64,000 nt of DNA from an uncultured delta proteobacterium (GTDB lineage: Bacteria; Desulfobacterota; Desulfomonilia; Desulfomonilales; Desulfomonilaceae), in the NCBI GenBank assembly GCA_963789265.1, contig CAWBKB010000001.1, positions 2,048,001 through 2,112,000 of the forward strand, in the 5' to 3' direction. Numbering within the stretch: the first letter of the stretch is position 1; each line of letters begins with the position of its first letter. Positions 1,069 through 16,500 of the stretch are shown here, piece after piece. The position numbers were made by a program, and so were the translations under genes. The notes below the pieces were generated by a model. It saw only the letters and a list, made by a program, of their open reading frames with translations, was not told where the DNA came from and made no database searches.

Positions 1069-1118
1069 CTTAACCATAGAATATAACGAGACTATCACTC
1101 CTCCCTACCCCCGAATAG

Positions 1119-1138
1119 TTGTGTGCAAATTGTGTGCA
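1119..1138 (+). promoter_or_regulatory. Putative integrase arm-type sites (left), TTGTGTGCA x2
   Basis: Copies at 1119-1127 and 1130-1138 (11-bp period), ~50 bp from the core; matched by 16117-16136. Confidence 0.75.
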
Positions 1139-1197
1139 GATCCTCTGTGATGGGAAATCAGACGGGGAACACGTAAATATATGGGACGTGGTTCCCG

Positions 1198-1317
1198 TAA
1201 AAATCGGTCCACTCGGTCCATTCGGGACTTTTGTTGTAATTTCGAGGGATTGCCGAAATTTAAAGCGGTCCACAAGTGGTCCACTTGGGGGGTAAAGTGG
1301 TCCACTGCTTGATTTTA
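1198..1317 (-). repeat. Left GTGGACC iteron array (inverted copy of 15960-16078)
   Basis: GGTCCA(C) at 1206, 1215, degenerate 1224, 1267, 1278, 1299. Confidence 0.85.
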
Positions 1318-2484
1318 TTACTGATTTGACTTTTTCAGGGGGGTGACAGTTGCTTTTCTTTGAATTGATCGAAGTGCGTTAACTTCCAGGTGGGAATATC
1401 GCTTGGTCTGCTCAAGATTGCTGTGCCCCAAAAACTTGGAGACTTTGTAAAGGGATTGGCCGTCGTTCACTGCTTGTGAGGCAATACTGTGGCGCGTGCC
1501 CTGATATAAGGTGATGTGAGCAACCCCAGCTTTTTCACGGGCTGCGTTCCATTGGTTCCTGCACCAATTCCGACCATGAGGCTTACCGGTCGAATCGCAA
1601 AAGACAAATCCCTCGGCATCCACATGGCGCGGTCTCGTCAAATAGAGTTCTTTCCAATTGGGGTCGAGAGGAACAATGCGAATTCGCTTTGACTTGGTAA
1701 ACGGCCGCAGGTCGTTATCAGCGAAGGCCCGCTGTATAGTCACTAGATCATTTTTTAAGTCGATATCGTGATGCTGAAGGGCTCGGGTCTCTCCGGGCCT
1801 CGTTCCGTGCGTAGCTGAGAAGAGGATCATAAGGTGCGCGTCAGCGGTCAGGTTCGCAAAGATAAGGTCCTGTGTCTCGACGTCCGCCCACTTCCACTCC
1901 GGGTCCGGCAGAGTACTTGCCCTGAATTCCATCGGGAACTTGGGGATTGCCTGTATAACCTCTTCCTCGTACGCATCCTTGAAGATCTTGTGAAGGGCGC
2001 TCATGATATTCCAGAGGCTTTTGGGGGAGTAATCAAGCGACAGGTAGAATTGTTTCAGGTCGCGCCCGCGGATCTCTGTAATGGGCTTCTCCTTGAAGTA
2101 GGGAAGGAATATGTTGCGCACGTAGTTCCTGAGCGAGCCCAAGTAGGTAATTGACAACTCATTCCGATCTTTGCGACGCTGGCAATTGCTCAGCCACTCT
2201 TCTGCGTAGACGGAGAAGCTGTGGAGTGATTTTTTCGTCTTGGAATAGAAGTCCGGGTCGAATGTCCCGCTTTGTATCTCGCCTGTTATTTGCGCCAGGG
2301 TATATTCGGCGTGCTCACGACTGTGAAAACTTCTGTGTTGCTTGTCGGCCCAGATCTCAATTCCGCCTGACAGACGGATTTTCCAGCGGTTGCCCCGATT
2401 CTTGTACACCTTCCCCAGAGCAGGCATTGTCCACACCTCCGGCGTTTGGGGGAAAGCATACTTTGTTTTTGACTTTGGGGGCAA
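1318..2484 (-). CDS. int: Tyrosine recombinase (phage integrase)
   Basis: 388 aa; catalytic motifs GTRPGE(R), TKSK, YQGTRH (H/YxxR), LGH, RY; N-terminal arm-binding-like region; adjacent to att. Confidence 0.93.
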   Translation of the reverse strand: MPPKSKTKYAFPQTPEVWTMPALGKVYKNRGNRWKIRLSGGIEIWADKQHRSFHSREHAEYTLAQITGEIQSGTFDPDFYSKTKKSLHSFSVYAEEWLSNCQRRKDRNELSITYLGSLRNYVRNIFLPYFKEKPITEIRGRDLKQFYLSLDYSPKSLWNIMSALHKIFKDAYEEEVIQAIPKFPMEFRASTLPDPEWKWADVETQDLIFANLTADAHLMILFSATHGTRPGETRALQHHDIDLKNDLVTIQRAFADNDLRPFTKSKRIRIVPLDPNWKELYLTRPRHVDAEGFVFCDSTGKPHGRNWCRNQWNAAREKAGVAHITLYQGTRHSIASQAVNDGQSLYKVSKFLGHSNLEQTKRYSHLEVNALRSIQRKATVTPLKKSNQ

Positions 2485-2883
2485 CTATTTTTCCGTTTTT
2501 GATTGCTCGCGGGAAAGTTCGCGCTCTAACCAAGCCAGATACTCGGGGAGCTGTTGATCCGTCAAACGCAGACCGGTTGCCTTGTGGATATTGCTCCTGA
2601 GCCTCTTAAACTGGCGTTTAAACCTGTAGTGTTGGCGTATTCGGCGGACACTTCCCTTGATCCACGCCAAGGGGCCTTGAGCGGGACACCAGCCCGGTAG
2701 TCGCAATATCTTGGCGAGGGCTTCCACCTGCACGGTAAGCCAGTGGTGAACAGCCCAGCCGTTTGGATCTCCCGATTCGCTGGACAGATAGGCTGGGTAT
2801 CCCAACAGCCGGGCCGCATCCCACGCGACCGCGGTGAGAAATGATTTGAACAACGACCATGCAAATTTCAGCCAGTCTCTCAT
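2485..2883 (-). CDS. Hypothetical protein
   Basis: 132 aa, abuts both neighbours in the leftward operon. Confidence 0.6.
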   Translation of the reverse strand: MRDWLKFAWSLFKSFLTAVAWDAARLLGYPAYLSSESGDPNGWAVHHWLTVQVEALAKILRLPGWCPAQGPLAWIKGSVRRIRQHYRFKRQFKRLRSNIHKATGLRLTDQQLPEYLAWLERELSREQSKTEK

Positions 2884-3164
2884 AGGTTTTCCCTCTCTTC
2901 CGAATAGCAGATGCGGCGCATGATATAATCAGCAGCTTCCCGTTGCGCCGGCGTAATTGGTCGTGGAACCGGATGCGCCCTTAGTATTTTCTCGAGTGCA
3001 CGTAGGGCAACGACGACCGTTTCAGCGGCCCGAACTGCCTTAGCGCCGGCTTCGGGTGCGTACCAATTTTCAACGTCGTGCATTAAAGATTCCGCTTCAC
3101 TTTGCAGTTGCCGAACCTTATCTATGATCTTTCGGAATTCTCCGCACGTATACCCGGGAGTCAT
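2880..3164 (-). CDS. Hypothetical helical protein (start MTPGYTCG)
   Basis: ATG at 3164 overlaps stop of ERCC4 gene (ATGA) with GGAGG-like RBS (GAGG); the longer 229-aa track ORF overlaps the ERCC4 gene. Confidence 0.6.
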   Translation of the reverse strand: MTPGYTCGEFRKIIDKVRQLQSEAESLMHDVENWYAPEAGAKAVRAAETVVVALRALEKILRAHPVPRPITPAQREAADYIMRRICYSEERENL

Positions 3165-3640
3165 GCTGACCTCGCTTCCAATCGGGATTGATGATCTCGC
3201 CAAAACCTCAACAAAATGCTCTCGCAGAGTGTTGCCGCAACTTCCTGGCTCCCAGCGAATAAGAAGGGTATGGCATATCTGTGCTGTAGCGCCACCACGG
3301 ATTCCCAGGCGCTCCTGGGGTTCATTTGGCTGCGGTAATTGCCTTGGAGTAGATCTGAATACCGGGCTTCCACGACCACATAGAAATGCAGGATGGACGC
3401 GGCCCGCTCCAATTCTCTCGTGAACCGTTCGCGGGAGACGGTTAAACAGCCGATCAAATCGTCCAGGGTTTTGCGTTCGATTGAAACCCAGCTTTGGAAG
3501 CCGTCCAGCGAATAATCGCCAGTCGGAAGGCACGTCCGGACGGTTGGCAGAGAAAAGTAATTTTCCCATGGCGCGGGGTCCGGTTCCCGCGTATCAATCA
3601 AGAAAAGCGGCAGAGGTTCGCTCTTGGCCATGCTACTCAC
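3161..3640 (-). CDS. ERCC4/XPF-family nuclease
   Basis: IDTRE, LPTGDY, IERKTLDDL motifs. Confidence 0.88.
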   Translation of the reverse strand: MSSMAKSEPLPLFLIDTREPDPAPWENYFSLPTVRTCLPTGDYSLDGFQSWVSIERKTLDDLIGCLTVSRERFTRELERAASILHFYVVVEARYSDLLQGNYRSQMNPRSAWESVVALQHRYAIPFLFAGSQEVAATLCESILLRFWRDHQSRLEARSA

Positions 3641-6085
3641 CCCTGTGCCGACTTAAATTGAGCGCAACTGGTAGCGTCCCGTCTCTCCACTGGCTTGGGG
3701 CAACACCACTCAAGATCACACTGGCTACACGCAAGACTTTGCTTCCCGAAATTACCAGGCACCACGTTGTCCGCTTGGCCTTCGGCCCTCAGTCCTATGC
3801 CGCGCCAAACCTTGACCCGAGCGCTTGCGGGGCCTACTTTGCCCTTTATAATGCCCGCTCTGCCTAGAAGATTTTCGTTGAACGGCGCACGCTTCAAGGG
3901 CTGCTCTCGCACATCCTCACAATGTGACTGATACGCCTTGTAAAGCTCCGAAACGGGTACAGTCGCGGAGATGTGGACCACACAATGCTTGTCCAGGAAA
4001 TCGCCTAGTTTATCGGCGTCTTGCCGGTAATCAGCAACTGCCAACTTGACCTTCTCGGGAGGATTGAGGCCGCTCTGTTGCCACTGCCGAAGCCCAGTCA
4101 GCATCCAGTTTAAAATGCCAGGCGCTTCGGCCTTCAGTTTGTCACCCAGAGTGACATCCTTATCCTCTCCCTCGAATTGCCGGGTAAATGGAATAAGTTG
4201 CGGGCGCCTCCAAAACGCCTCAGACGCGTCCCGCACTTCTGGTCGATTGTTCGCGCAAATGAAGACTTTGGCTTCAGGAGTAAACTCGAAAAATTCCCTG
4301 CGCAAAAAGCGAGCAGTAACCTTACCGTCTCCAGAGACTTTCTTGATAGTTTCGGCGTCGAATCGTTTCCCCTTCGGTTCAGAGGCAGACACGAACCGAG
4401 CGCCCCGGAGTCTGGCCAGGTCATTGCGAGGCGAATCGTCGTTTCTGCGCTCCATGAATGTGGCGGCGGGCGTATCAATAGCGTAGTCCCCCAATACCGC
4501 AGAGATGGTGTTTACAAGCACGGATTTGCCGTTACTGCCTTTTCCCCAGAGAAAAAACCAACATTGTTCGGTGGTCAGCCCGGTAAGGGCGTAGCCCAAC
4601 ACCCGCTGCATATAAGCGGTTAATTCGGCGTCGCCTTCGGTAATCTCTGTGATGAATTGATCCCACCGCGGGCAAACGGCCGCTGCGTCATAGTCAACAG
4701 GCGCTACCCTCGTAATGAGATCATTTGGCGAATGTGGTCGTAACTCGCCGGAGGCAAGGTCAACGGTGCCGTTCCTCACGTTCAAGAGCAAGGGGTTAGT
4801 ATCAAACACGTCTGGGAGTACACTGATTTCCTGCTCAGACGGGAGTAGCTGAATCATGGCGTTGATCTTGGAAACGCTCTCGCACTTCCGGGCGAACTTA
4901 GTCAGAGCTTCTTGCTGGTCCTTGTCCGTCAGATTCGCCGCTTCGCCGTGAAGTCCCCTTACTACGTCCTTGGCAGCGGCCTGAACCCGTGAAAGTTGAT
5001 CCTGCGCCCATCTAGTTCCGTCATAATGGTACCATCCTCCCAACTGTCCGCAGAACTTGATTTTGCCTTGAACAGCAGCGGCCAAGCGCTCAGCGTTTCC
5101 CATGTCGCTGAGGTGGTGGGAATCAGACTTGCCCTTTTCTTGAGCCTGGCGCCGGCGCTCGGCACGAATTGCCGATACGAATTCGTACTCCGGGGTCTCT
5201 TCCGCCAAATAAAGCAACGTGTAATATGTCCCCTCGCGACCCTCCTTCTCGAGGAAATCAGAGAGGTCCCCCCCTTCGGGCAGGTTGGGCAGGTTCAGGA
5301 TTTTGACGCTTTTCGCAAATCCGTGGAGGGTATCAGCTACCGCTCGGGCGTGACTCTGACCCGGTTCGTCATTATCGGGGATGATCCATACTACGCGATC
5401 TTTGAGAGGCTCGTGAATCGCATATTTTTTGACCAGGCCCGGCCATTTACTGCCATGCCGGTCAGCGCCCTGCGGAGGCGTCGTGGCCACAAATCCGAGA
5501 GACCGGGCCGCCAGAAACATCTTTCTCTCCTTCGACTACGAGAACCGGCTTTTCCGGATCCGCGGCCAACAACTCCGGCAGCCCGAATAGGACGCGAGGG
5601 ATGCCGTTTAGATCCCAGGCCCAACCGTCCTTGCCCTTTGGGTCCGGGCGCCGCACGGGGAAATCTCCTTTTGGGTCCGTCCTGCATACCTCATAGAGCA
5701 ATTTTCCTGACTCATCGTGGTACGGGTAGGTCGCGATGATCCTGGCGTACTGCTTCCGTTTTTTCTTGGAAGTTTTTCCTTTATCCGGCTTGGGCTTCCC
5801 GGCCCCTTCAGCGATCCAATTGCAGGCGTCCAGAAATGAGCACTCTTTGGCCGCCATAACGAATCCGATGGGGGGGTAATGCGTATTGCTGGAAAAATCA
5901 TGAGCGTGGTCTTCGTAGATTTTGAGGCTTTCAGTGCTCTCTGATGGATTCTCGATGCTCTTTATAAATCCGCTCGCATTAGGCTCTTTCCCCAGGCGAC
6001 GGCATATCTCGGGCAGGGAAATCAACTTATTGTAATAGTCGGTATTGACTTTGGAGTTCGCGTCAGGTAGGCTCTGATCTGACAT
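3637..6085 (-). CDS. P4/D5-type primase-helicase (degenerate CHC2-like N-term, TOPRIM, D5_N, SF3 helicase); one frameshift near 5516
   Basis: Track ORFs 5462-6085 (VLVVEGEKDV) and 3637-5520 (IIPDNDEPG, Walker A GKGSNGKS, RLRGARF, AFWRR) join as ...EKDVLAARSLGF if one T is removed. Confidence 0.88.
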
Positions 6086-6331
6086 TTATGGTTCCTCATA
6101 CTGCCCCGGCCGCCAACCGGGGTTTTGTTTATTTGGTTTTCGTTTCTCGGCCTTGAACTGTTTGGCCAGTACTAGCCACTCCGGAATGCTGCCTTCTGGC
6201 CAGTAAAATCGCCCGCGGGGGCTCACAAACGGAGTCGGAAATGCTCCTTGGTCCATGAGGATCAAAAGTTGCTCCACTGTGAGGTGCAACAAATCAGCGA
6301 GACCATGCACATCAATCCCGTTTGTCATCAT
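6086..6331 (-). CDS. AlpA/excisionase-like HTH protein
   Basis: 81 aa, LADLL...MDQGAFPTPF...RFYW...IPEWL pattern typical of AlpA; upstream of primase. Confidence 0.65.
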   Translation of the reverse strand: MMTNGIDVHGLADLLHLTVEQLLILMDQGAFPTPFVSPRGRFYWPEGSIPEWLVLAKQFKAEKRKPNKQNPGWRPGQYEEP

Positions 6332-6521
6332 TTTTCAGTTTGGCCCCTACAGCCCCGGCTCCGAAATAATGAGCACAGTGGCGGCTGAATTCCCGTAGTT
6401 CGTCACGCACATGTTTGAATTCCCCGCGCCTCATCCGCTCTATCGTTGACCGATGGATGCCCAGCAATATGGCCACACATGGCTGGGAGCATTCAGGCGG
6501 TATGTGTCGATCGGAATCCAT
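6312..6521 (-). CDS. Small HTH-like hypothetical protein
   Basis: 69 aa, SQPCVAILLGIHRSTIERM HTH-like segment; GAGG RBS. Confidence 0.5.
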   Translation of the reverse strand: MDSDRHIPPECSQPCVAILLGIHRSTIERMRRGEFKHVRDELREFSRHCAHYFGAGAVGAKLKNDDKRD

Positions 6522-6533
6522 CTCATTTCCTCG

Positions 6534-6767
6534 TCAGGCCGCGCCCTGGCCTGAGTTTTGGGTGATGTCAGGTACTCGCTCCATTAACCGCTGAAATGTC
6601 CATTCTGGGCCGAAGAATCGTTTCAACTTGCGCTCAAGGTTGCCTGGAGCACGCGTGAGCCAACCGTTTTCCAGTTTGGATAGAACCGATTGCTGCACTC
6701 CCAACTTCATCGCCAAATCCCTCTGACTGATTTGTCGTTGAAGCCGCATGAAAAGCAGGTAATTCAT
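6534..6767 (-). CDS. XRE/Cro-like HTH regulator
   Basis: SQRDLAMKLGVQQSVLSKLENG; AGGAGG RBS. Confidence 0.85.
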   Translation of the reverse strand: MNYLLFMRLQRQISQRDLAMKLGVQQSVLSKLENGWLTRAPGNLERKLKRFFGPEWTFQRLMERVPDITQNSGQGAA

Positions 6768-6785
6768 AAGGTCCTCCTATCGTTT

Positions 6786-6804
6786 GGTCACACTTACTGT
6801 GACC
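6786..6804. promoter_or_regulatory. Palindromic operator GGTCACA-N5-TGTGACC
   Basis: Perfect 7-bp arms; 16/19 match (reverse complement) to 7454-7472. Confidence 0.6.
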
Positions 6805-6830
6805 TGGTAGACAAAAAAAGGGGCTTACCC

Positions 6831-7439
6831 TCACCGGTTTATTAAAACATCCCCTCGGTAACCGTCAGTGCGTCGCAGGGATTTTGAGACAGTACGATCC
6901 AGGGTTACCCCTAGAGTTTTTTCGATATGTCGAGCAATCGCTTTCACGGAGATGAATGTTGCGCTCATCATAACCATGCCCTGCCAGGGATTCATGCCAA
7001 GCCACGCCTTAAACGTCTCGCGCGCCACATCCAGCGGTTCCACAACCATCATGCACGTGCGCACATTTTTAGCGGTCGTATGATGTTCTTTCGGGTTCTC
7101 GCGCTTTTCGCTTGATATGGATAAAGCGATACTCACGTCATAGCCCCATGCCCGGCAGTACTCCATGACTAGAATAGGCTCCCAGGCCAACGAGAGTTGA
7201 GGTTGTTGCCGGTCCGTCGCGTGGCCGATCAGCATTTGAATATGGTCCGCCCGGTATACTCCATAATGCGAAGCCTGGACTACGATTCCTGTGAGAATGG
7301 CCTTTGGCTCAGGGAATATCATATAGCCGCGAGAATCCCTGTCCACAGGCAGGACGCCTGCATCATCCCAATGTTTGATCGTTGTGCGGCCCACTTCAGG
7401 AAAGCAGTTTTGAATGTTCTTTGGCGAAAATGTCTGCAT
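6831..7439 (-). CDS. MerR-like HTH protein
   Basis: N-terminal VGRTTIKHWDDAGVLP...RDSRGYMIF resembles MerR wHTH. Confidence 0.6.
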   Translation of the reverse strand: MQTFSPKNIQNCFPEVGRTTIKHWDDAGVLPVDRDSRGYMIFPEPKAILTGIVVQASHYGVYRADHIQMLIGHATDRQQPQLSLAWEPILVMEYCRAWGYDVSIALSISSEKRENPKEHHTTAKNVRTCMMVVEPLDVARETFKAWLGMNPWQGMVMMSATFISVKAIARHIEKTLGVTLDRTVSKSLRRTDGYRGDVLINR

Positions 7440-7453
7440 AGTAACCTCGTTGT

Positions 7454-7472
7454 GTTCACAGTCAGTGTGACG
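7454..7472. promoter_or_regulatory. Second copy of TCACA-N5-TGTGA operator
   Basis: GTTCACAGTCAGTGTGACG just upstream of the 7439 start. Confidence 0.55.
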
Positions 7473-7583
7473 GGAAGAGACATATAGGAGAATTTTCTGA
7501 GTGTCAACGACTTTCTATGATTTGTTTTGGGTCTATTTTATTTTTTTGCCGTCCAGCTATAGAAGCCCGCACTGACAGTGGTT

Positions 7584-7599
7584 TGGCACACTTGTTGCT
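7584..7599 (+). promoter_or_regulatory. sigma54 (-24/-12) motif
   Basis: TGGCACA-CTTG-TTGCT. Confidence 0.55.
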
Positions 7600-7827
7600 G
7601 AAGGCTGTCAACGCAGATTTTAGGCAGTAATACCTTGAAATGTTTCGAGCGCTAGCAAACAACTACCAAGTCACCTCTCCAAACCCCTGCATGGAAGCCC
7701 ATAAGTGGCACCCTGCATGAAGAAAACAACTACCAGCCATTTCGCAGCGTCCATGATGTCCAATAATCTCGCGCGGTTATAAGGCCGCGGAGTGCATCAT
7801 TTATTTGAAATCATTACCATTTTGGGC

Positions 7828-7856
7828 TTGACTCGTCGCGCGCGGAAAGATATCAT
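7828..7856 (+). promoter_or_regulatory. sigma70 promoter for rightward XRE-like genes
   Basis: TTGACT-17 nt-TATCAT. Confidence 0.65.
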
Positions 7857-8004
7857 GCCCCCCATCTGCATCCAAAATCGCAATCCCCTCCCTTGTATCA
7901 GACTGGTACTCAGGTCCTATACTATAAACCGCAAAAGCCCCCGTTGGAGACAGGAGCTCCGTCGAGGGCTGATGCCACACCTATGCGTCAAAGGAAGGTG
8001 CAGC

Positions 8005-8472
8005 ATGGCAATAATCTATCGTTTCTCGAGCCGCGAAGCAATTTCAAAAGAAGCGCGGCCCACAACGCCATACGTTCCCCCTTGGGAGCAATACTCGCCC
8101 GTACGAAGGGTTATTTTGCCAGACTTTTTCTATCCGGATGTTGAGGTTGTTCGCCGGCAAGATTCTGGGTGCAAACTTGACTACAAAGGTTTCTACTTCC
8201 GATTGATAGTCTGTAAAAAGCCCGGAGAGAGCATCAGAGCGTTTTGCAAGAGAACTGGATATAGCAAGTCAGCGTTCTATCATTTGAGGCAAAATCCAAG
8301 TTCAGTTGCTTCAAACAGGCGTGTAAATCCAAAACTGGCCGACAACCTGGGGGTCGATCCAGGCTGGCTCGAATTGGGGTTGGATTTTGGCCCGCTGCGC
8401 GAGCGAGGTAAATGGCCGCACGTTGAACTGGCGCAAACCGCCGTACCCTCAAAAGTTCGATCCCTGCAATAA
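8005..8472 (+). CDS. XRE/cI-like HTH protein
   Basis: ATG after AAGGAAGG; SIRAFCKRTGYSKSAFY...KLADNLGVDPGWLELG. Confidence 0.65.
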   Translation: MAIIYRFSSREAISKEARPTTPYVPPWEQYSPVRRVILPDFFYPDVEVVRRQDSGCKLDYKGFYFRLIVCKKPGESIRAFCKRTGYSKSAFYHLRQNPSSVASNRRVNPKLADNLGVDPGWLELGLDFGPLRERGKWPHVELAQTAVPSKVRSLQ

Positions 8473-8537
8473 TTTCTTAACTCCCCGGTCTGCCTGGGCC
8501 GGGGTCCACACTGCCTATGCATAAAGGAAGGTGTAGC

Positions 8538-8925
8538 ATGTCAAAGTCTATCGTTTCCAAGGAAGCAAAACAAACTGTTCTTCGCGAAAGCGCCGATTAC
8601 CGAATAAGCCATTACTCTATAGAGGAACTCCGCGAATGCGGAGAGAAATTGAGGGCACTCCTGAACGAGATACTCCCTGGCAGGACGGTTCCGAACTGGG
8701 CGCAAGCGCTGGGGGTGAGCGAAAATTTGCTTTTAAGGGTTTCTGGGGGGCACAAAAGGCTTCACGATAACCGACATGTTGAGCGTCACCCAAGGCTTAG
8801 TCCGTCTCAGTACTCCGGCGTGGGACGTGGCAAGTTGGTGGTGGGTCGGCCCCGCTGCGGAGGAGGTGAGATTGTGGAGAGCTCGCGAAACCGATTCTGA
8901 GGAAGTTCCCGTGCCAGTGCAGTAA
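8538..8925 (+). CDS. XRE-like HTH protein, probable frameshift near the G6 run 8745-8750
   Basis: TVPNWAQALGVSENLLLRV HTH; alternative frame continues TKGFTITDMLSV...EEVPVPVQ* to TAA 8923-8925, followed by a GC hairpin. Confidence 0.5.
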
Positions 8926-9092
8926 CCTTTACATCCCCGCTCTTCGGGGCGGGGACCCTCCCTCCCCCGTACCCGATCAGCATACGAAATTCCCGATTTT
9001 GACAAATAGTGCTACGATTACCCTCCGGGCGATCCCCGATCCGGCCGGCGCCGGGGAAGTGAGAAGGTGGGGCGTAACACGATCTCCAATGG

Positions 9093-9419
9093 CTACAGAG
9101 AGAGCACACAGAGGTCGTTGTTCTTGGGCCGGGGCTTCACGGTACGCTTAATCTCCGCTTCCATTCGATCCTCTGCCATGTCCAGGTCGTACCGCGCCTG
9201 TGCGTTCAACCAAAACTGCGGAGTGGTCCTGAAATACCGCCCCAGCCGCATGGCCGTGTCTGCCGTGACGCTGCACTTGCCGTTGAGAATACGATTTACG
9301 GTTGAAACACTAATCCTCAGAGCTTCGGCAAGCTTGTGCTGAGTCAAGCCCAAAGGGTCCATGAATAGTTCCTTTAGTGTCTCGCCCGGGTGAATAGGCG
9401 GTAATTTTCTCGTTTTCAT
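9093..9419 (-). CDS. higA: HigA-family antitoxin
   Basis: PPIHPGETL...LGLTQHKLA...TADTAMRL...FWLNAQARYDL. Confidence 0.92.
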   Translation of the reverse strand: MKTRKLPPIHPGETLKELFMDPLGLTQHKLAEALRISVSTVNRILNGKCSVTADTAMRLGRYFRTTPQFWLNAQARYDLDMAEDRMEAEIKRTVKPRPKNNDLCVLSL

Positions 9420-9461
9420 AATGTTTTTTCCTATAGATTCTATAATATATTTGTTTCATAC

Positions 9462-9740
9462 TCAGTGATAATCGACCAGTTCTAGATCGTGAATGTATCC
9501 ATCCTTCCAAGCGAAGCACAATCGCCAGTTGCCACTGACCCGTAAGCTATGCTGACCCCTCCGCTGCCCCTTCAATGCCTCCAGCCCCCCACCGGGAATA
9601 GCGGCCAAGTCTTCCAGGCGCACAGCATCTTGCATCGCTCCAAGCAACAGCCTAAGTCTCCTGTGAAGGTGCTCAGGACTCCTTGAATGCTTCCGGTTAG
9701 ACAGCTTCTCCAGTTCCTTGTCTGCAACGCTCTTAATCAT
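9462..9740 (-). CDS. higB: HigB/RelE-family toxin
   Basis: MIKSVADKELEKL...LEALKGQRRGQHSLRVSGNWRLCF...LVDYH; toxin upstream of antitoxin. Confidence 0.92.
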   Translation of the reverse strand: MIKSVADKELEKLSNRKHSRSPEHLHRRLRLLLGAMQDAVRLEDLAAIPGGGLEALKGQRRGQHSLRVSGNWRLCFAWKDGYIHDLELVDYH

Positions 9741-9746
9741 GTATAT

Positions 9747-9775
9747 ATCATATTGCGCAACGCGGGACAATGCAA
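9747..9775 (-). promoter_or_regulatory. higBA promoter (likely leaderless transcript)
   Basis: TTGCAT-17 nt-TATGAT, 6 nt before ATG; TTGCGCAA palindrome in spacer. Confidence 0.65.
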
Positions 9776-9806
9776 GTTCAAAAATGAAAGACATCCAATC
9801 GGCAGG

Positions 9807-10043
9807 CTACCACCCCTTATTCCACCACGGCCCGATCTGCCAGAACGATGTAACCCCTTCTCTGCGGTTGAAAACGGGGAATCCGGCCGCCCGGAGTGCT
9901 TCCAGGTCCCGGTAAATCGTTCGGTATTTTGCCTCGAGTACCCGACAGAGTTCTTCCACCTGGCAACCCGATGGATTTGCCGACAGGTAGCGGACCAGCT
10001 TCCACTGACGAATTAGTGATGTGTTTGGGTGGTCTTTTGCCAT
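9807..10043 (-). CDS. Stand-alone wHTH resembling the N-terminus of WYL-domain regulators
   Basis: LIRQWKLVRYL...VEELCRVLEAKYRTIYRDLEALRAAGFPV; ends before any WYL domain. Confidence 0.7.
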   Translation of the reverse strand: MAKDHPNTSLIRQWKLVRYLSANPSGCQVEELCRVLEAKYRTIYRDLEALRAAGFPVFNRREGVTSFWQIGPWWNKGW

Positions 10044-10057
10044 GGTACGATAGGCAG

Positions 10058-10567
10058 TTAATTATCGTGTTGCGTCTCGCTTGCTTGCTTCCCCTGGAAG
10101 TCGAGAATCCAATCCGTGAGTTTTGAGCGGTCTACCAATTCGCAGCCGTTCGATTGCGCCAGGGTTCGGGCTCCCTTTGTGAAAAGGCTGTTCGTCACAA
10201 CCTGCGCCTCGCTGCATTTATAGTAGGTCTTTCCTGCTACCGCGTCCGATATTGCCCTTCGACTCACCGATTTACCGTGACGCTTGCATTGAATCGCAGT
10301 TCTGGTGCCGTTCGATACTGCTATGAGGTCAACGCCAAGGTCACCGCTGTCAGGCGTAAATTGTACCCGCTTCCCCTGATGCTGGAGCAAACGTGCAACG
10401 TAATTCTCAAACTCGCGCCCGCTCATGAGATCGACCCTGGAAATGTCCAGAGCCCTTATCCTTCGCTCTATCCTCCGCCGTTGCTTCACGCCCCTCCAAA
10501 CGCCCCAGGCGACCACGAGTACTATGCCGAGTAAGAAGAGAAGAGTCAATAAGCTGCTGTCGTCCAT
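10058..10567 (-). CDS. Membrane-anchored Mrr-family restriction endonuclease
   Basis: N-terminal TM helix; SGREFE, SGDLGVDL, IQCKR, VVTNSLFT. Confidence 0.88.
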   Translation of the reverse strand: MDDSSLLTLLFLLGIVLVVAWGVWRGVKQRRRIERRIRALDISRVDLMSGREFENYVARLLQHQGKRVQFTPDSGDLGVDLIAVSNGTRTAIQCKRHGKSVSRRAISDAVAGKTYYKCSEAQVVTNSLFTKGARTLAQSNGCELVDRSKLTDWILDFQGKQASETQHDN

Positions 10568-11051
10568 CTGAGCCCCCCTGAATAAAGTTACGACTCCGCG
10601 CGAACGCAATCAAGAGAAATCTGTGTCGCCTCAACTGCCTTCACAGGACCCGCGTGGTTGCGATTTCAGGCGAGAGATAGGGATTGATGCCCGGAGAGCC
10701 TGAACCTCGCTGAGATTTGACTACACGGAGCCAGTGGCGCACCTTCTTGGCTACCTTCTGTTCACTGAACATGCAGAGAAGAATTAGACCGTCCAGGGTG
10801 AAGTACCGTTCGCGAGTCGGAGGACGATGTACATCATGTGTAGGCGATACGCCTATTCGAGTGGAATTATAGTCGAATCCGGCCCGTATCAGCCAGGATG
10901 TTTATTTGGGTGCAATCATTGTCGAATTCGTCCTTATGGGTTTTGAGCCCAGCCGCAACGAGAAACGACCGGGCTCTTGCCCTGGCTCGGAAGGGTTTGA
11001 CCAGGGCGCCCAGGCCGCCGAAAACTACTTGGAAAACGGCGGCCTATCGAG

Positions 11052-11121
11052 TTATCCACAACCCTCCGGGGGACCGAGAAGTTATCCACAGGTTACTTCC
11101 GGGAGGGAAAAGTTATCAACA
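11052..11121 (+). promoter_or_regulatory. Cluster of three DnaA boxes
   Basis: TTATCCACA 11052-11060 and 11082-11090, TTATCAACA 11113-11121; 30/31-bp period. Confidence 0.75.
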
Positions 11122-11158
11122 GCCCCTGCCTCCGCAGGAGGTGCGAAAAAATTACGCA

Positions 11159-12175
11159 TCATGAGTACGAAACCTCCGTGGGATCATTGGTGGAGACGAT
11201 TTTGGGGGCGTTGTAGGCAGCATAACGAAGAAAATAATTGGCGAGTCGATCCCGAACCGCTTGAAAAAATTCTGAGATGTCGATCTTGGGTTTTTCTTGG
11301 ATTATGTGCCGCGTTCCTTGCAAGAGTCCTGCTGCCCCATTCACCACAAACTGTGTCTCGCCTGCTGTCAAAATGATGCAGTTGTTATCAGCGTCCAGGA
11401 TGATCGAGGGGCCAATATCCTGATTCTCTTTTGCGGACAGGATCATGACCCGTCCCTTGTCATCTTGCGCCCATCTGTAGATTCCTTGCCCGTTGAGATC
11501 AACCTCGCCAGTGATCGCGACTCCGCCGGCGATCAGTTCAGAGGGCTTCCAGGAGGTTCCTGCCATAACGGATTTAACGCCTCGAACCTCGCCTTTGCGG
11601 TACTTGCTCTCGTCGTTCTTTTGCTCCTGCTGGTCTTCCGTTTGGCCGGGCGCCACCGAAAAATGTCCTGCCCCTGTCCAATCCAGCAATGCTAGAGTTT
11701 CTGCTTTGCCGTTGTCATCCATCAGGAGGGTATGGCCGGCCTCGCTCTTCAGGAGTCTTATGCGAGTACCCTGGCGCACATCATTATCGCTGTAGACCTT
11801 AGCTTCCGCGGGAATCATCTCCGATTTGTCATCCTTAGAAGCGTTCCACGCAGAGAACGGGAAGACAATCGGGCTCGCATAATAGTCACCGCCAGGGAAG
11901 GCCACAGTAACGAGTTCCTTCGGGACAGGGCACCACCACATTCCCATGTCGCCATTACCGGCCGAACCGCCCATCGGCAACCAGGACATTTCGCACCAGT
12001 TCGACCAATTCCTGTAGTCTCCGTCTTCGAGCAGGCTTCGGATCTCAACTCGGACGCGACCTTTTCGTAACGGGTCTTTCAGGTCCTTGACGACTCCCAC
12101 GTGGCAACTTGCACCTTGGAGAATGTGGTGCGCCTCGCGCGGAATCGGGATTTTATTTTGTCGGGGGTCCGTCAT
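11159..12175 (-). CDS. Gp5/VgrG-type baseplate central spike protein (OB-fold)
   Basis: GVVKDLKDPLRKGRVRV...WSNW...GMWWCP...VTVAF.GGD...PIV and KSEAGHTLLMDD motifs of the gp5/gpV N-terminal OB-fold and beta-helix start. Confidence 0.82.
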   Translation of the reverse strand: MTDPRQNKIPIPREAHHILQGASCHVGVVKDLKDPLRKGRVRVEIRSLLEDGDYRNWSNWCEMSWLPMGGSAGNGDMGMWWCPVPKELVTVAFPGGDYYASPIVFPFSAWNASKDDKSEMIPAEAKVYSDNDVRQGTRIRLLKSEAGHTLLMDDNGKAETLALLDWTGAGHFSVAPGQTEDQQEQKNDESKYRKGEVRGVKSVMAGTSWKPSELIAGGVAITGEVDLNGQGIYRWAQDDKGRVMILSAKENQDIGPSIILDADNNCIILTAGETQFVVNGAAGLLQGTRHIIQEKPKIDISEFFQAVRDRLANYFLRYAAYNAPKIVSTNDPTEVSYS

Positions 12176-12272
12176 TGGATTGCACTCCTTAGAAGAAAAT
12201 CCCGCCCCACGGCCATAGGAATGGTTGAGACTCCGGGAGGCGGGCCTATCCGCCTGACGAGCGGGTAAAACG

Positions 12273-12650
12273 TTAAAATTCCAAAGTTTCGACTGGTTGT
12301 CCTACGTCGGTTGCGTGTGTAATCGCCATGCCATGTTTGACCTGACCATCGGCAACCGGAAAAACGGCATTCCCAGCGCCAAAACAGAAGGGGCCGACTG
12401 GTACGGCAGCGCCACTAACCCTCGTGCGCCTCAACACGAAGCTTGATACCACCACGCATGTTTCGGGATCTAAGCAGCCGTAATTGCTGGCTGAATGCCG
12501 TGAAATCACTTCACCGACAACATTTGCACTCCCCTGGCTAGAAATCGGTTGCACCGACATGTCGCCGATGATTTCAACGATGTCTCCTGCCTGAGTCTCT
12601 GGCGTGCATGTGAACATGTCAGACAGCGGTTCACCTGCGACTTTATTCAT
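12273..12650 (-). CDS. Putative capsid cement/decoration protein
   Basis: 125 aa beta-rich, AGDIVEI...VVGEV...SGAAVPVG...HGMAITHATDVGQPVETL; resembles DUF2190/beta-tulip cement proteins (by eye). Confidence 0.5.
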   Translation of the reverse strand: MNKVAGEPLSDMFTCTPETQAGDIVEIIGDMSVQPISSQGSANVVGEVISRHSASNYGCLDPETCVVVSSFVLRRTRVSGAAVPVGPFCFGAGNAVFPVADGQVKHGMAITHATDVGQPVETLEF

Positions 12651-12858
12651 TTTGCCCCCCGATCTTGACCCATCCTTTTGTAGCCAACTTTTGCACCGCC
12701 TCTCGAATGTCTTCCTCCATGAGCCTATCAGCAGCATCCTTCTTTCGGTTTGCCATCTCAAGTTCCGTATCCCGCGGGCCCGCTCCGTCTGTGCAGTGCT
12801 CGAAGCTGAACACCGTTTCGCCGTCGATCACTTCAGCATGTGGTATTGTCGCATTCAT
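12643..12858 (-). CDS. Small hypothetical protein
   Basis: 71 aa, overlaps both neighbours, GGAG RBS. Confidence 0.55.
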   Translation of the reverse strand: MNATIPHAEVIDGETVFSFEHCTDGAGPRDTELEMANRKKDAADRLMEEDIREAVQKLATKGWVKIGGQNE

Positions 12859-13011
12859 CGGTTGTTTCTCCTCGCCTTGGCCACGTTCCGATAGTAGGTA
12901 CGGCGCTCTTCCAGCAGATCCACGTCCTGACAGGTCTCAATGTGGCGTCTGGTCCTTAATCTCTTCACGGCTGAGCTTCAACTGAACATTAACGCTGTCA
13001 GCTTTGAGCAT
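12855..13011 (-). CDS. Small ORF, probably frameshifted
   Basis: MLKADSVNVQLKLSREEIK + frame-shifted RRHIETCQDVDLLEERRTYYRNVAKARRNNR*; TGATG and ATGA overlaps couple it to both neighbours. Confidence 0.4.
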
Positions 13012-13805
13012 CAGGCAACCTCGGCTTTGGCCAGCGCCGCCTCAGCCCGCGGAAGGTATGCTCTTATGGCGGCCCGGACCATGCACTCATCTTCATCCGC
13101 TCCACTCGGTAGCCGCGTGCTCAGACCCCATGGCATCGACCATGTGTAACGGGTTATCTCCCCCTTGCTCCTGTCAAGCTCACCGCCGAGCGGCCGTAAG
13201 GTGTCACCGGCTTTACGTTTGGATAGAAAACCCATCACGGCCGTCTCTAAATGTTTTTCCAGACAACCGCCCAGGTCGCGGAGTCGTTCCAAATCATTCA
13301 TATACACATTAAGATGGAATCCGACCCGGCGACCGGAAAACATCGGCCGAATGTGGCCGCAATGAGCTTTGGCATACTTTTTGACAGCGGCCCTCATGAA
13401 AAATGCCCTCTCGTCCGGCTGAACCGGCAAAAACTCGTCTGCCAAGTCGCTGGGGACAACCCAGATGTAATTCGTGCACTGCTCAGACGCCCGGAAATTA
13501 GGCACGTTCAGCTTACCCTCAGTGAACACCGACTCGGGGCTCTTCGGCTGGTAATCTCTCACAGCGGCCCAGAAATGGTCCGACAGAGGATCGTCTAGTT
13601 CCCTGAACTTCTCGAAATAGCTGTTTTCGTACGCGACCATAATCCTGGTCAGACCCGGCACCCGAGGCGGCTCTACCGGCTCCGGCAACTGCGCCGCATA
13701 GAATGATACCGCTTTCTCAGCCGCATCCACAATGTGGCCCGTGGCCGCCAACCTCCGGTAATCTTCGTCCGAAACTCGTAATACCAAACCCAAATCGTGC
13801 GCCAT
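13011..13805 (-). CDS. Protein with five tandem ribbon-helix-helix-like units
   Basis: Repeated strand-helix-helix ending in EKAVSFY / WAAVRDY / RAAVKKY / ETAVMGFL / RAAIRAYL; AGGAGG RBS. Confidence 0.6.
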   Translation of the reverse strand: MAHDLGLVLRVSDEDYRRLAATGHIVDAAEKAVSFYAAQLPEPVEPPRVPGLTRIMVAYENSYFEKFRELDDPLSDHFWAAVRDYQPKSPESVFTEGKLNVPNFRASEQCTNYIWVVPSDLADEFLPVQPDERAFFMRAAVKKYAKAHCGHIRPMFSGRRVGFHLNVYMNDLERLRDLGGCLEKHLETAVMGFLSKRKAGDTLRPLGGELDRSKGEITRYTWSMPWGLSTRLPSGADEDECMVRAAIRAYLPRAEAALAKAEVA

Positions 13806-14102
13806 AAAGCCTCCTGAAAAAACCCAATAATGGTTGACTGCTCATTATCAAAGACTCGCTCGATGTCAAGGAAAATTAACCGCGCAAGTTAATCCAGTTT
13901 AATACGTTTAATGAGTTAAGAGAAAAAATATCAAAAACGGCATATACGGGGGAGAGATTGCCCTAAAATCGCCGACCCCGGGGGGGGGCCTTTTCAGACA
14001 TAGGGGGGGGTATACTTGTGGTACCATCGCGCCACGCTTGGTGTTTCAGTGCGGGGTGAGCTTGTGCGGTGAAACTTCTATCGTGCTCTGGTCTGTTGTA
14101 GA

Positions 14103-14420
14103 TCAACTCTCGTCGTCGTCGTCCAGCGCTGCCTTCGCTACGAACGCGTCAATCCTTTTGATCAACGGCTCCCAGCTTTGCGGCATGTATCCGTCCAAAC
14201 ACGCCATGATCATGAGGTTTATTCCCTCGGTTATAGCCTCCCGAGCTTCAACGAGAAGGGAAATTGCATCGTCGGTGCCTTCCCCGAGATATCCATCAAG
14301 GGCCTTTTGGCGGTTGGCGGGTAACTGAGCAACCAGCTTTTTCAATTCGATCATTGCCGGGTGCTTCGAGATGTCTCCGGGCTTTTTGCGAACGTTGGTT
14401 CCATCGTTTGCATTTTTCAT
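14103..14420 (-). CDS. Hypothetical protein, acidic C-terminus
   Basis: ATG at 14420 overlaps recombinase stop (ATGA); GGAGG RBS. Confidence 0.6.
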   Translation of the reverse strand: MKNANDGTNVRKKPGDISKHPAMIELKKLVAQLPANRQKALDGYLGEGTDDAISLLVEAREAITEGINLMIMACLDGYMPQSWEPLIKRIDAFVAKAALDDDDES

Positions 14421-15121
14421 GCGGCCCTCCTGTAAATCTTGGCAACCAGGACATCCGACCATACAGCGCCAGTCCGGGTCTGATAACCTTCCTGGTTCAA
14501 TTCCCGCGCTATCGCCCTGAATCCATGTCCATCTGCTTTGAGCTCGTGAATACGTGCAATGATCTTCTGCTCGGTAGGCTCCGGGACCAATACTTTGAGC
14601 GGTCGATCTTTGCCGGCCTGAACCTTTTCTTCAACCCCGAATCCAAAAGGAACATGACCGCCTGTCTTCTCGTTCCGCTCTTGCTTGTCTTTCATGATGG
14701 CCAGGGTGCGCTCACTCGTCACGTCACGTTCGAACTGAGCAAAGGCGCTCATCATACTGAAAAACAACTTACCTGCGGCACTGGTAGTGTCGATGGACTC
14801 GCTGACACTGATGAAGTCCCGGCCCAGCTTGTTCAACTTCTCAGCCGTTGCAATAGAATCCTGAGTCGAACGGAAAGCTCGGTCTAGTTTGAACACGATC
14901 AGACCGGCAACTTTGCCACTGTAAACCTCATCTAGGCAGGCTTTGAATCCGTGGCGTAGGTGGATACTCTTAGCGGATACACCGTCGTCGTAATAGATGC
15001 AGTTCAGTTCGAGGCCCTTGGCCTGAGCATAGGCTGAGATTCGCTCGCCCTGCATTTTCAAGGACAAGCCGTCTTTGGCCTGCTTCGCGCTGCTCACCCG
15101 AACATAACCGTTGACTTTCAT
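14417..15121 (-). CDS. Serine recombinase (resolvase family with short C-terminal recombinase domain)
   Basis: GYVRVSS..Q, DDGVSA, FKLDRAFR, SERT, GGHVPFGF, IARELN..G..TRTG..W. Confidence 0.93.
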   Translation of the reverse strand: MKVNGYVRVSSAKQAKDGLSLKMQGERISAYAQAKGLELNCIYYDDGVSAKSIHLRHGFKACLDEVYSGKVAGLIVFKLDRAFRSTQDSIATAEKLNKLGRDFISVSESIDTTSAAGKLFFSMMSAFAQFERDVTSERTLAIMKDKQERNEKTGGHVPFGFGVEEKVQAGKDRPLKVLVPEPTEQKIIARIHELKADGHGFRAIARELNQEGYQTRTGAVWSDVLVAKIYRRAA

Positions 15122-15454
15122 AATCCATCCTCCCTTTTCTTTCGTCTACCCCTCTATACTGCACATTCCATGCCACTCTTCGCCCCGCGAGGCCACAATA
15201 TACAGCCTCCAAAGCGGCCCGTCGCGCAGATATGGTATGGTAAATCTCCTCGGGCCTGCTACAATGCGGAAATAATGCCGTGAGTGTCCGAAAAGTAAGG
15301 CAGAGTGTAGCTTATTGGGATCGCCCGACTTTTGGGGCAGTGTTTGAGCATAAAAAGCCCATTAACAGCCACTTTGGGTATTTAAAACCGCTCCATGAGA
15401 GGCCCAGGAAGGCGAGACCGCGTACTTTGCCAGGATCGGAGCAACCCTAGATGT

Positions 15455-15619
15455 TGGCACGAAGATTGCTTCTTATTATATGGCACGGTAATTGCTAAGA
15501 CATGGACCCGCAAGAGTGGCCCGGGCCTTGCATTATTAGCAGGTAGTATGCCATGAGACTATTTTGGCACGTGGCTAGAATTCTGTGACTAATTCCCTCT
15601 AAATGGCCCGCTTCCTGCA
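15455..15619. promoter_or_regulatory. Cluster of sigma54 -24/-12 motifs
   Basis: 15455-15470 +, 15481-15496 +, 15517-15532 +, 15538-15553 -, 15604-15619 +, degenerate 15565-15580 +. Confidence 0.75.
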
Positions 15620-15959
15620 TGTATTCCACGATAACACACCGCTTCTCACAATCGCTGATCTGAAACTCCGAGTAAACTAGGTGCATATACACCATATTTG
15701 CATCGAAATTAGAGCGCTGACATGGCAATGCTGGAGAGGCTTTGACCAGGTGGTCATCGGTAACAGCAGGCTCAGTGAGGAGTTAGAGAGGTTCCCAAAC
15801 TGGCCCGAGCGGTCAGTTTTCCGTGTTTCGCAAGAATCGCAATGGAAGTATGCATTGACGCATGGACCGGACAAGAAAACCGCGGGATTCCGCGGAGGCG
15901 TGGACGTGAGGAACCGGCAATCGCCACACTCTGAAAGTTTCTATAAACCTACTTCTTCA

Positions 15960-16078
15960 ATGAAATCAATTAGTGGACCGTTTTTTATAAAAGTGGACCG
16001 TTTGTGGACCACTTTGCATTTTTATAAGTCTCTGGAATCAGGATATATGGACCGAGTGCACCGAGTGGACCGTTTTTT
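15960..16078 (+). repeat. Right GTGGACC iteron array
   Basis: Copies at 15973, 15993, 16004, 16047, 16056 (GTGCACC), 16065. Confidence 0.85.
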
Positions 16079-16116
16079 TATTCCTAACATAAAGTAAAAA
16101 AGCATAAGAAAAGGGG

Positions 16117-16136
16117 TTGTGTGCAGGTTGTGTGCA
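16117..16136 (+). promoter_or_regulatory. Putative integrase arm-type sites (right), TTGTGTGCA x2
   Basis: 16117-16125 and 16128-16136, ~53 bp from core. Confidence 0.75.
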
Positions 16137-16189
16137 GGCGGGTATGGTGGTCAGTAAGTTGTAGTAATAACAGGGTTATTTGGTAGGCT

Positions 16190-16219
16190 TCCGGGGTTCA
16201 AGTCCCTGCACCGCCACCA
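16190..16219 (+). repeat. attR core
   Basis: Identical 30 bp to 1039-1068. Confidence 0.95.
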
Positions 16220-16500
16220 GCTAACCTGGCACTACCATTGCGGATTCCTTGTGCACTAAGAATCTTCGGTGTACCGCCGATCACTCCCAAAGCATCGTTC
16301 AAAGGCTGTACAAGGCAATTTCGCTAATATTCCATTCCTGAGTGCAGTGTCTTATATCGGGTGATGTTGCGTGCGCTTGCAGTCCTGCCCGCATTACACC
16401 TCATCGGGTATTTTCAAGTAGAAGCGCGGGATGGCTAAAGCGCCAGGCAACCGGCCCTTGAACAATCATCCAAAACAGCGTATAAAAATATGTTCGGGAC

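Follow-up and report, generated by a model that had tools for sequence, protein, structure and literature searches.

Sigma54-type sites in the right arm of a tRNA-Met island

The window analysed here is a 64,000-nucleotide stretch of the genome of an uncultured delta proteobacterium (assembly GCA_963789265.1, contig CAWBKB010000001.1, positions 2,048,001 to 2,112,000). A 15.1-kb island (1069..16226) is integrated in it at the 3′ end of a tRNA-Met gene (992-1068), and a 37-nt direct repeat (1039-1075 and 16190-16226; 95% identical) bounds the island. The right-hand repeat (16190..16226, plus strand) is the attR copy of the tRNA-Met 3′ end. Between the start of a serine recombinase gene at 15121 and attR at 16190, the right arm of the island extends over 1.07 kb without a credible gene. 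The subject of this study is an array within this arm, 570 bp from the island end: a run of 165 bp (15455-15619) that contains five complete sigma54 -24/-12 motifs together with a half-site of the -24 type. Among bacterial sigma factors, sigma54 is the only one that parks RNA polymerase on DNA in a locked state, which is silent without an activator.

The site scores were counted against the sigma54 consensus TGGCACG-N4-TTGCW, which was taken as given and not derived from these sites. On the plus strand, site 1 (TGGCACGAAGATTGCT, TGGCAC-GAAGA-TTGCT; 15455..15470) and site 2 (TGGCACGGTAATTGCT, TGGCAC-GGTAA-TTGCT; 15481..15496), 26 bp past site 1, both match at 12/12 consensus positions. Site 3 (TGGCCCGGGCCTTGCA, TGGCCC-GGGCC-TTGCA; 15517..15532, plus strand) matches at 11/12 and lies 36 bp past site 2. 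Site 4 (TGGCATACTACCTGCT, TGGCAT-ACTAC-CTGCT; 15538..15553; 9/12) is on the minus strand and is convergent with site 3 at an offset of 22. The half-site, a plus-strand TGGCAC at 15565..15570, has no GC at -12. The final site of the array is site 5 (TGGCCCGCTTCCTGCA, TGGCCC-GCTTC-CTGCA; 15604..15619, plus strand; 10/12). Thus, four full sites are on the plus strand (15455, 15481, 15517 and 15604) and one is on the minus strand (15553-15538), and the GG-N10-GC doublet spacing is exact in all five. These six elements had been listed in an initial annotation of the window, and we found every one of them exactly where it had been placed.

The initial annotation also held that no convincing coding sequence lies downstream of the array. 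Our results agree with this: a 138-aa open reading frame (ORF) in the arm (15681-16097) has no Pfam match, and in a comparison with a sister island from a genome of the same genus (G001), the similarity of the arm was alike in all six frames and no ORF was conserved. The further statement that the array has no gene to drive holds only in part. Leftward of the array by about 280 bp is a conserved minus-strand site of the sigma54 type, 38 nt upstream of the recombinase start, which is described below.

Rarity, conservation and viral counterparts of the array

The host genome encodes the machinery that such sites require. It has one rpoN gene (204.9 bits) and 43 matches to Sigma54_activat, the AAA+ domain of sigma54 activators, which correspond to about 40 enhancer-binding proteins. 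With both strands counted, the 6.06-Mb assembly contains 33 copies of the strict form of the motif, TGGCAC-N5-TTGC[AT]. Because 22 of the 33 sites are intergenic and, by crude ORF calls, 18 have an ORF in the same orientation that starts no more than 400 bp downstream, the consensus is in use as a promoter in this host. Three of the 33 fall within the 15-kb island, namely sites 1 and 2 and a single site at 7584.

The initial annotation had proposed a genome-wide scan with a sigma54 weight matrix, and had considered that clusters of this kind might be common background in this genome. Two strict sites within 170 bp are found at the array only, and the density of strict sites predicts about 0.03 such pairs in the whole genome. 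The looser form TGGC-N7-YTGC[AT] has 290 copies genome-wide, and its clusters of at least 3 sites (3, 4 and 5) also occur at the array only; we give this count less weight because the looser pattern, unlike the strict one, was fitted after the fact. We then ranked 200-bp segments of the genome by their summed scores with a weight matrix trained on 19 host sites, all outside the island. The segment with the array ranked first with 56.6 bits, and the runner-up reached 36.8; this matrix cannot score the two TGGCCC sites because motif position 5 was fixed as A in its training. Thus, no comparable cluster exists elsewhere in the 6.06 Mb.

Across the phylum, 4 of 401 genomes, this one included, have a strict tandem pair (reversed control, 0), and the other three loci contain just 2-3 sites each. 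A looser pair pattern matched in 4 of 70 genomes of the order, where more than one pair at one place was seen only in this genome and in G001.

The only relative of the right arm that a DNA search detected in 60 related genomes and 69 other genomes of the order is the sister island, on contig 27 of G001, which sits at a different tRNA-like site. The initial annotation had suggested a survey of related elements; in this one, sites 1, 2 and the last are kept. The two arms are 74% identical to the left of the array and 66% identical to the right of it, and they are unalignable across most of the array itself: the left aligned block includes site 1 only, at the left edge of the array, and conserved, alignable DNA resumes 1-3 nt past the last site. 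The G001 array has four plus-strand sites (positions 4793, 4819, 4886 and 4911 of locus L006), with spacings of 26 and 25 bp. The site at 4793 is the orthologue of site 1 and has the same spacer, GAAGA. At the 26-bp offset of site 2, G001 also has a site, and the flanks of these two are unrelated. The site at 4911 is the orthologue of the last site (15604), at an equal distance from the conserved block ATTMCASGATAAYAC. The half-site at 15565 may descend from a counterpart of the G001 site at 4886 that has since decayed. Among sites 1, 2 and the last, the TGGC and TTGC positions are identical at 23 of 24, compared with 16 of 34 at the remaining positions of these stretches (Fisher p = 6e-5; the positions were picked by the motif, which somewhat favours this result). 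Judged by this alignment, it is the sigma54 motif and its phasing that are kept, and not the surrounding sequence. Of the full sites in both islands, 8/9 face rightward.

Other searches with parts of the island were mostly negative. A search of genome contigs with the recombinase protein gave no relative. The arm-repeat pattern matched 40 stretches of genome contigs, of which only L040, a G001 contig, is related, and the others are chance matches in unrelated taxa. In viral contigs, neither a 22-nt conserved block nor the primase-helicase had a match (0 in each case).

The layout of the array recurs in viral contigs. Two strict sites 5-30 nt apart were found in at least 122 viral stretches, compared with 7 for the reversed pattern. 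Per base, strict tandem pairs are not clearly commoner in these contigs than in bacterial genomes; in the samples examined, mobile DNA is set apart only by arrays of at least 4 sites. The details given here are from 80 of these viral loci, 69 of them distinct, with a G+C content of 0.33 to 0.67. The densest 250 bp of these 80 loci contain 2 sites in 41, 3 in 14, 4 in 9, 5 in 9 and 6-9 in 7, so that 39/80 have at least 3. At positions that the search left free, the base ahead of TGGCAC is a pyrimidine in 169 of 205 sites, the base behind it is G in 147, and the base after TTGC is A or T in 170. These preferences agree with the extended sigma54 consensus. Same-strand neighbours are 26-28 bp apart in 38 of 110 cases, with a second group at 35-38 bp, and 18 of the 23 convergent neighbours have an offset of 18-22. 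The island array matches this layout: its tandem sites are 26 and 36 bp apart, and the offset of its convergent pair is 22.

The viral arrays lie mostly outside ORFs and have neighbours that mostly have no known function. A small terminase gene is adjacent in 5/69 distinct loci (L131, L139, L150, L165 and L174), and for several arrays the nearest contig end is no more than a few hundred bases away. In five array-bearing viral records, neither the activator AAA+ domain nor the sigma54 DNA-binding domain was found (0/5). In all three whole phage contigs examined, every site with a score of at least 11/12 (7, 6 and 5 sites, respectively) is inside the array. The island is unlike these phages in that it has further sigma54 sites outside its array (7584 and 15175-15160). 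In full-text searches of the literature, no description of arrays of sigma54 sites in phages or mobile elements came up; a phage that carries a gene for a sigma54-type regulator is described in the accessible part of PMC3391216.

Other layouts were also observed among the viral loci. In L206 (1402-1620), L144 (1466-1616) and L161 (328-524), plus and minus sites alternate, with a convergent pair every 41-43 bp and up to 9 sites. In such arrays, two holoenzymes could hardly fill one convergent pair at once. In a 10.5-kb viral contig (L154, L155), tandem pairs are about 1 kb apart (788/815, 1501/1527 and 2546/2584 in L154).

The reading of the motifs as sigma54 (RpoN) sites in the initial annotation is supported by the host rpoN gene and activators, by conservation of the core alone, by viral arrays of the same spacing and by the absence of the motif from the recombinase family (two or more copies at 0 of 80 homologue loci). 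Most likely, the motifs are genuine binding sites for the host sigma54 RNA polymerase holoenzyme, kept by selection. On the basis of these comparisons, we consider it probable that the holoenzyme binds the array.

Other features of the island

Two further sigma54-type sites on the island, neither of which was named in the initial annotation, are in promoter positions. The first (TGGCATGGAATGTGCA; 15160..15175, minus strand; 10/12) is the site upstream of the recombinase gene, and the identical 16-mer is present in G001. A GGGAGGA ribosome-binding site lies between it and the recombinase ATG at 15121. To judge from this placement, it is likely the promoter of the serine-recombinase operon. The second (TGGCACACTTGTTGCT; 7584..7599, plus strand; 11/12) is a strict site upstream of the only plus-strand genes of the island. 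About 420 nt downstream of it are two paralogous small plus-strand genes, whose starts share a 22-nt repeat (7990-8011 and 8523-8544), and a MerR-like helix-turn-helix (HTH) gene (6831-7439, minus strand) diverges from the site. Because of these two sites, at least two operons of the island are apparently under sigma54. A sigma54-like motif (TGGCACTACCATTGCG; 16227-16242; 10/12) also starts at the first host-side base past the attR repeat, 260 bp upstream of an RsmD-like gene; this one may be due to chance.

The leftward site of the recombinase operon and the first site of the array are divergent, and the spacer of about 280 bp between them (15176..15454) is the best-conserved part of the arm (74% identity to G001). 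It contains repeats of the TTTGGGGCA type, of which that at 15285-15301 is inverted relative to that at 15323-15339, and another is at 15371-15380. We consider this spacer a candidate enhancer.

To the right of the array, a non-coding stretch (15620..15960, plus strand) is conserved at 66% identity to G001 and includes a palindrome, TGACCA-NN-TGGTCA, at about 15742-15755. This stretch shows no excess of RNA structure (z = -0.67). When both strands of seven segments were folded, there was likewise no excess (z between -1.2 and +1.1), and a consensus fold of the arm from the two sequences contains too little variation to be weighed. An Rfam scan of the arm gave nothing except weak tRNA-like matches on the att copy. 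No plus-strand terminator was seen downstream of the array. On the minus strand, a terminator-like hairpin (CCGCGGAATCCCGCGG followed by a T-run; 15880..15895) lies 260 bp to the right of the array. In an excised circle, this hairpin (15895-15880) would be downstream of the integrase gene, int, across attP. Phage lambda has a terminator beyond att, in the same relative position.

Two families of repeats flank the att core at both ends (1118-1286 and 15972-16137), and both are conserved in G001. GTGGACC repeats at 15972..16078 are mirrored at 1199-1286, and the pair GTTGTGTGCA-NN-TTGTGTGCAG (a TGTGTGCA double repeat; 16116..16137, plus strand) has a direct copy at 1118-1139. The initial annotation had called the right-hand set an iteron array. 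Repeats are present there, and a role as (split) iterons is possible, but both families are at least as well read as attP arm-type sites, because in the excised circle they would stand to either side of the att core, as attP arm sites usually do.

The initial annotation had also taken DnaA boxes, together with the array, to suggest decoys for host factors. The boxes are real: a trio at 11052-11121 (AGTTATCCACA, AGTTATCCACA and AGTTATCAACA, of which two are perfect and one has a single mismatch) lies on one strand with 30-31 bp between boxes, in a gene-free stretch between the Mrr and Phage_base_V genes. However, the trio is 4.3 kb from the array and may simply mark an origin. It could mark the island origin or be another set of sites for a host factor.

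The gene content of the island was examined with Pfam and PHROGs. A tyrosine integrase (1318-2484) and a D5_N primase-helicase (3637-5520) are both encoded on the minus strand. The serine recombinase (234 aa; 14417..15121, minus strand; Pfam Resolvase, 1.8e-34) heads a leftward operon and is 71% identical to the G001 protein. Further genes encode an ERCC4 nuclease, several HTH proteins, HigB/HigA, an Mrr-type nuclease and a Phage_base_V protein. By the same searches, no gene for a capsid, a terminase, sigma54 or an enhancer-binding protein is present on the island. With an integrase, a primase-helicase and a baseplate-spike-like protein, but without capsid or terminase, the island looks satellite-type.

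Some details of these genes were also recorded. The genes behind the recombinase in its putative sigma54-driven operon (12273-14462) are orphans: the 264-aa protein encoded at 13011-13805 matched only itself in a set of 5.8 billion proteins. In the same region (12273-14462), diverged DNA matches are kept at the same place in G001. The primase-helicase is split into overlapping ORFs (5462-6085 and 3637-5520). A contig of the public run X1 has one base fewer at 5515, a difference that would join the two ORFs in a single frame, so an assembly error or a strain variant may account for the split; X1 is also one base short at 8740. In the contigs of three public DNA runs, there was no joint indicating excision or an empty site, and no new variant of the array. 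One of these three runs contains an arm of the G001 type.

Possible functions of the array and comparison with known systems

We tentatively favour the idea that the array is the rightward half of a bidirectional, enhancer-dependent control region, with transcription as its main role. We base this on the rightward orientation of 8/9 full sites in the two islands, on the outer sites having kept their positions, on the conservation of the spacer and its TTTGGGGCA-type repeats, and on the other sigma54 promoters of the island. In this model, the site at 15175-15160 would fire the serine-recombinase operon leftward, and the four plus-strand sites would hold polymerase as closed complexes. When a host enhancer-binding protein becomes active, possibly through a shared enhancer in the spacer, the bank might fire non-coding transcription rightward over 15620-15960 and the att arm. 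One host signal could thereby link expression of the recombinase with transcription that crosses attR or, once the island is excised as a circle, attP; in the circle, the rightward transcript would be antisense to int. Recombination itself might be affected.

Several observations weigh against this model. No product is visible, because the region downstream of the array is without an ORF, a plus-strand terminator or excess RNA structure. The search for an enhancer yielded no clear dyad: no perfect 7-bp dyad was found, and no 9-mer is shared between the region of site 7584 and 15177-15960. There was no match to an IHF-like site or a DnaA box in the arm. The candidate repeat of the TTTGGGGCA type was not found near other host sigma54 sites. 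The island encodes no enhancer-binding protein. Neighbours at 26 bp and the convergent pair cannot all be independent promoters. The evidence from conservation comes from one sister island. Moreover, the phage arrays, which contain the only good sites in the three whole contigs examined and are accompanied by activator genes in 0/5 records, may point to a role other than gene expression.

Such a role would be that of a docking array, or sponge, that is not transcribed; the initial annotation had put forward a sponge, along with a roadblock, a DNA-entry aid and a primer RNA. Silent closed complexes would form at the sites and, once the excised island replicates by means of its own primase-helicase, would drain sigma54 or park polymerase, as the phage arrays would. 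We regard this as possible, though doubtful. The layout is common to the viral stretches mentioned above (at least 122, against 7 for the reversed control), and the 26 and 36 bp spacings and the convergent pair at offset 22 match the viral modes. Sites 26 or 36-37 bp apart are separated by roughly 2.5 or 3.5 turns of the helix, which would place the bulky complexes of neighbouring sites on opposite faces of the DNA, as expected if the sites are meant for joint occupancy. The lack of a visible downstream product and of an activator gene, both on the island and on 5/5 phage records, also fits, and the island has a DnaA-box trio as well. In addition, according to the accessible text of PMC4591121, sigma54 holoenzyme sits inactive on sites in vivo. 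However, orientation should be irrelevant to a sponge, yet 8/9 full sites face one way. Five sites per copy would titrate little unless the copy number were high. Furthermore, two operons of the island have sigma54 sites of their own, so draining sigma54 would also silence these operons.

The docking idea can be extended to phages. It is possible, if uncertain, that many phages and this island carry helically phased docking arrays for sigma54 polymerase that do not serve gene expression and instead act as a sigma54 trap or as an activator-independent sensor of "any stress". If a trap, the array would be a DNA-encoded drain of sigma54 from host promoters once the element replicates. If a sensor, any active enhancer-binding protein would fire the bank of closed complexes from solution, without a binding site of its own. 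In either case, the island would share, or compete for, the same host factor as co-resident phages.

Three further explanations are unlikely, each to a similar degree. In one, the array is a boundary element, in which closed complexes and the hairpin at 15895-15880 would shield the recombinase operon from transcription that comes from the att side, either from the host flank or, in the circle, from int. The array does lie between the att arm and the recombinase operon, and the leftward terminator-like hairpin is 260 bp to its right. However, the available part of PMC4591121 reports that silent sigma54 sites within E. coli genes did not lower the expression of those genes, "effectively ruling out" a roadblock, and most sites of the array would meet the oncoming polymerase head-on.

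In another, the array is a cis-acting site for DNA handling, such as packaging or the handling of DNA ends, that was copied from or is shared with a helper phage. Its position 570 bp from the end of a satellite-type island would suit this, as would the viral arrays directly beside a small terminase gene (5/69) or within a few hundred bases of a contig end. However, the terminase neighbours are a small minority, most neighbours being without known function, and contig ends are not proven genome ends. There is also no known helper phage and no known mechanism by which sigma54 would take part in packaging.

In the third, the repeats bind another protein, as res sites of the serine recombinase, arm sites of an integrase or excisionase, or iterons of the primase-helicase. 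They do sit between the recombinase gene and attR, amid many other repeats, and the initial annotation had itself named resolvase subsites as an alternative. We examined 80 metagenomic loci of recombinase homologues (235 kb), and none has two or more of the motifs within 250 bp. Upstream of the gene, the DNA of the three nearest homologues (74-79% identity) is unrelated, and the motifs lack dyad symmetry. For these reasons, res or accessory sites of the serine recombinase were rejected. Replication iterons are also unlikely: the copies share the sigma54 core only and not their full length (23/24 against 16/34 between the islands). That the same motif is arrayed in phages of G+C 0.33 to 0.67, with flanks like those of the extended consensus, further argues against binding by another protein.

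Finally, it is very improbable that the array consists of chance matches or decaying remnants without a present function: sites 4 and 5 match the consensus less well (9 and 10 of 12), and the half-site is without its -12 element, but the cluster is unique in a genome where about 0.03 strict pairs within 170 bp are expected, and the motifs are conserved in a diverged sister island.

If a dense, conserved array of this kind expresses nothing, mobile elements would be making use of the locked state of sigma54 itself. They could do so as a way of sensing signals from the host, of capturing its polymerase or of labelling a special place on their own DNA. Several known systems can be compared with the array. 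Enhancer-dependent sigma54 promoters, such as glnAp2, pspA and nifH, have the same -24 GG and -12 GC motif and spacing. The recombinase site has the textbook placement of these promoters, and the host has rpoN and many activators. The array differs from them in that five to six sites, one of them convergent, lie in 165 bp without a gene, and neither an enhancer nor an IHF-like site was found. In E. coli, the hyc and hyp operons with FhlA are an example of divergent sigma54 promoters that share an intergenic enhancer. The leftward single site and the rightward bank of the island resemble this arrangement, as a conserved spacer of about 280 bp separates them; unlike in hyc/hyp, one side is a multi-site bank without a coding target. 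The promoters A1-A3 of phage T7 are strong early sigma70 promoters that are clustered at the entering end of the DNA and transcribe at once. The island array is similar in having several same-direction polymerase sites near the end of a mobile genome, but its sigma54 sites would be silent without an activator.

Silent sigma54 sites are known in E. coli: according to the accessible part of PMC4591121, at least 135 sites hold inactive sigma54 holoenzyme in vivo, mostly inside genes and without a roadblock effect. The island array is like these in that it is far from gene starts and likely binds inactive holoenzyme. As far as that text describes them, the E. coli sites are single, scattered and mostly intragenic, whereas the island array is dense, phased, intergenic and conserved as an array. 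Sites for a host regulator that are carried by phages are exemplified by the CtrA boxes of alphaproteobacterial phages (PMC9437464, in its available portion). In both cases, a mobile element is wired to a host transcription factor by DNA motifs. From what that portion presents, however, CtrA boxes are single operator-type sites at phage promoters, and the island has an array of sigma-factor sites.

The closest counterparts are the phage arrays, with which the island array shares the 26-bp tandem spacing, the convergent pair at offset 22, the gene-free setting, the location on mobile DNA and the lack of an activator gene on the element. Unlike them, it is on an integrated, satellite-like chromosomal island beside attR, where single sigma54 sites are also present in promoter positions. 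What this case adds to the phage arrays is, first, two integrated sister islands that can be dated and that have kept the motif but not the sequence around it. The neighbourhood of the array is also defined, since the attP arm lies to one side of it and a putative sigma54-driven recombinase operon to the other, and its island's single sigma54 promoters make a transcriptional role of the array testable with simple reporters.

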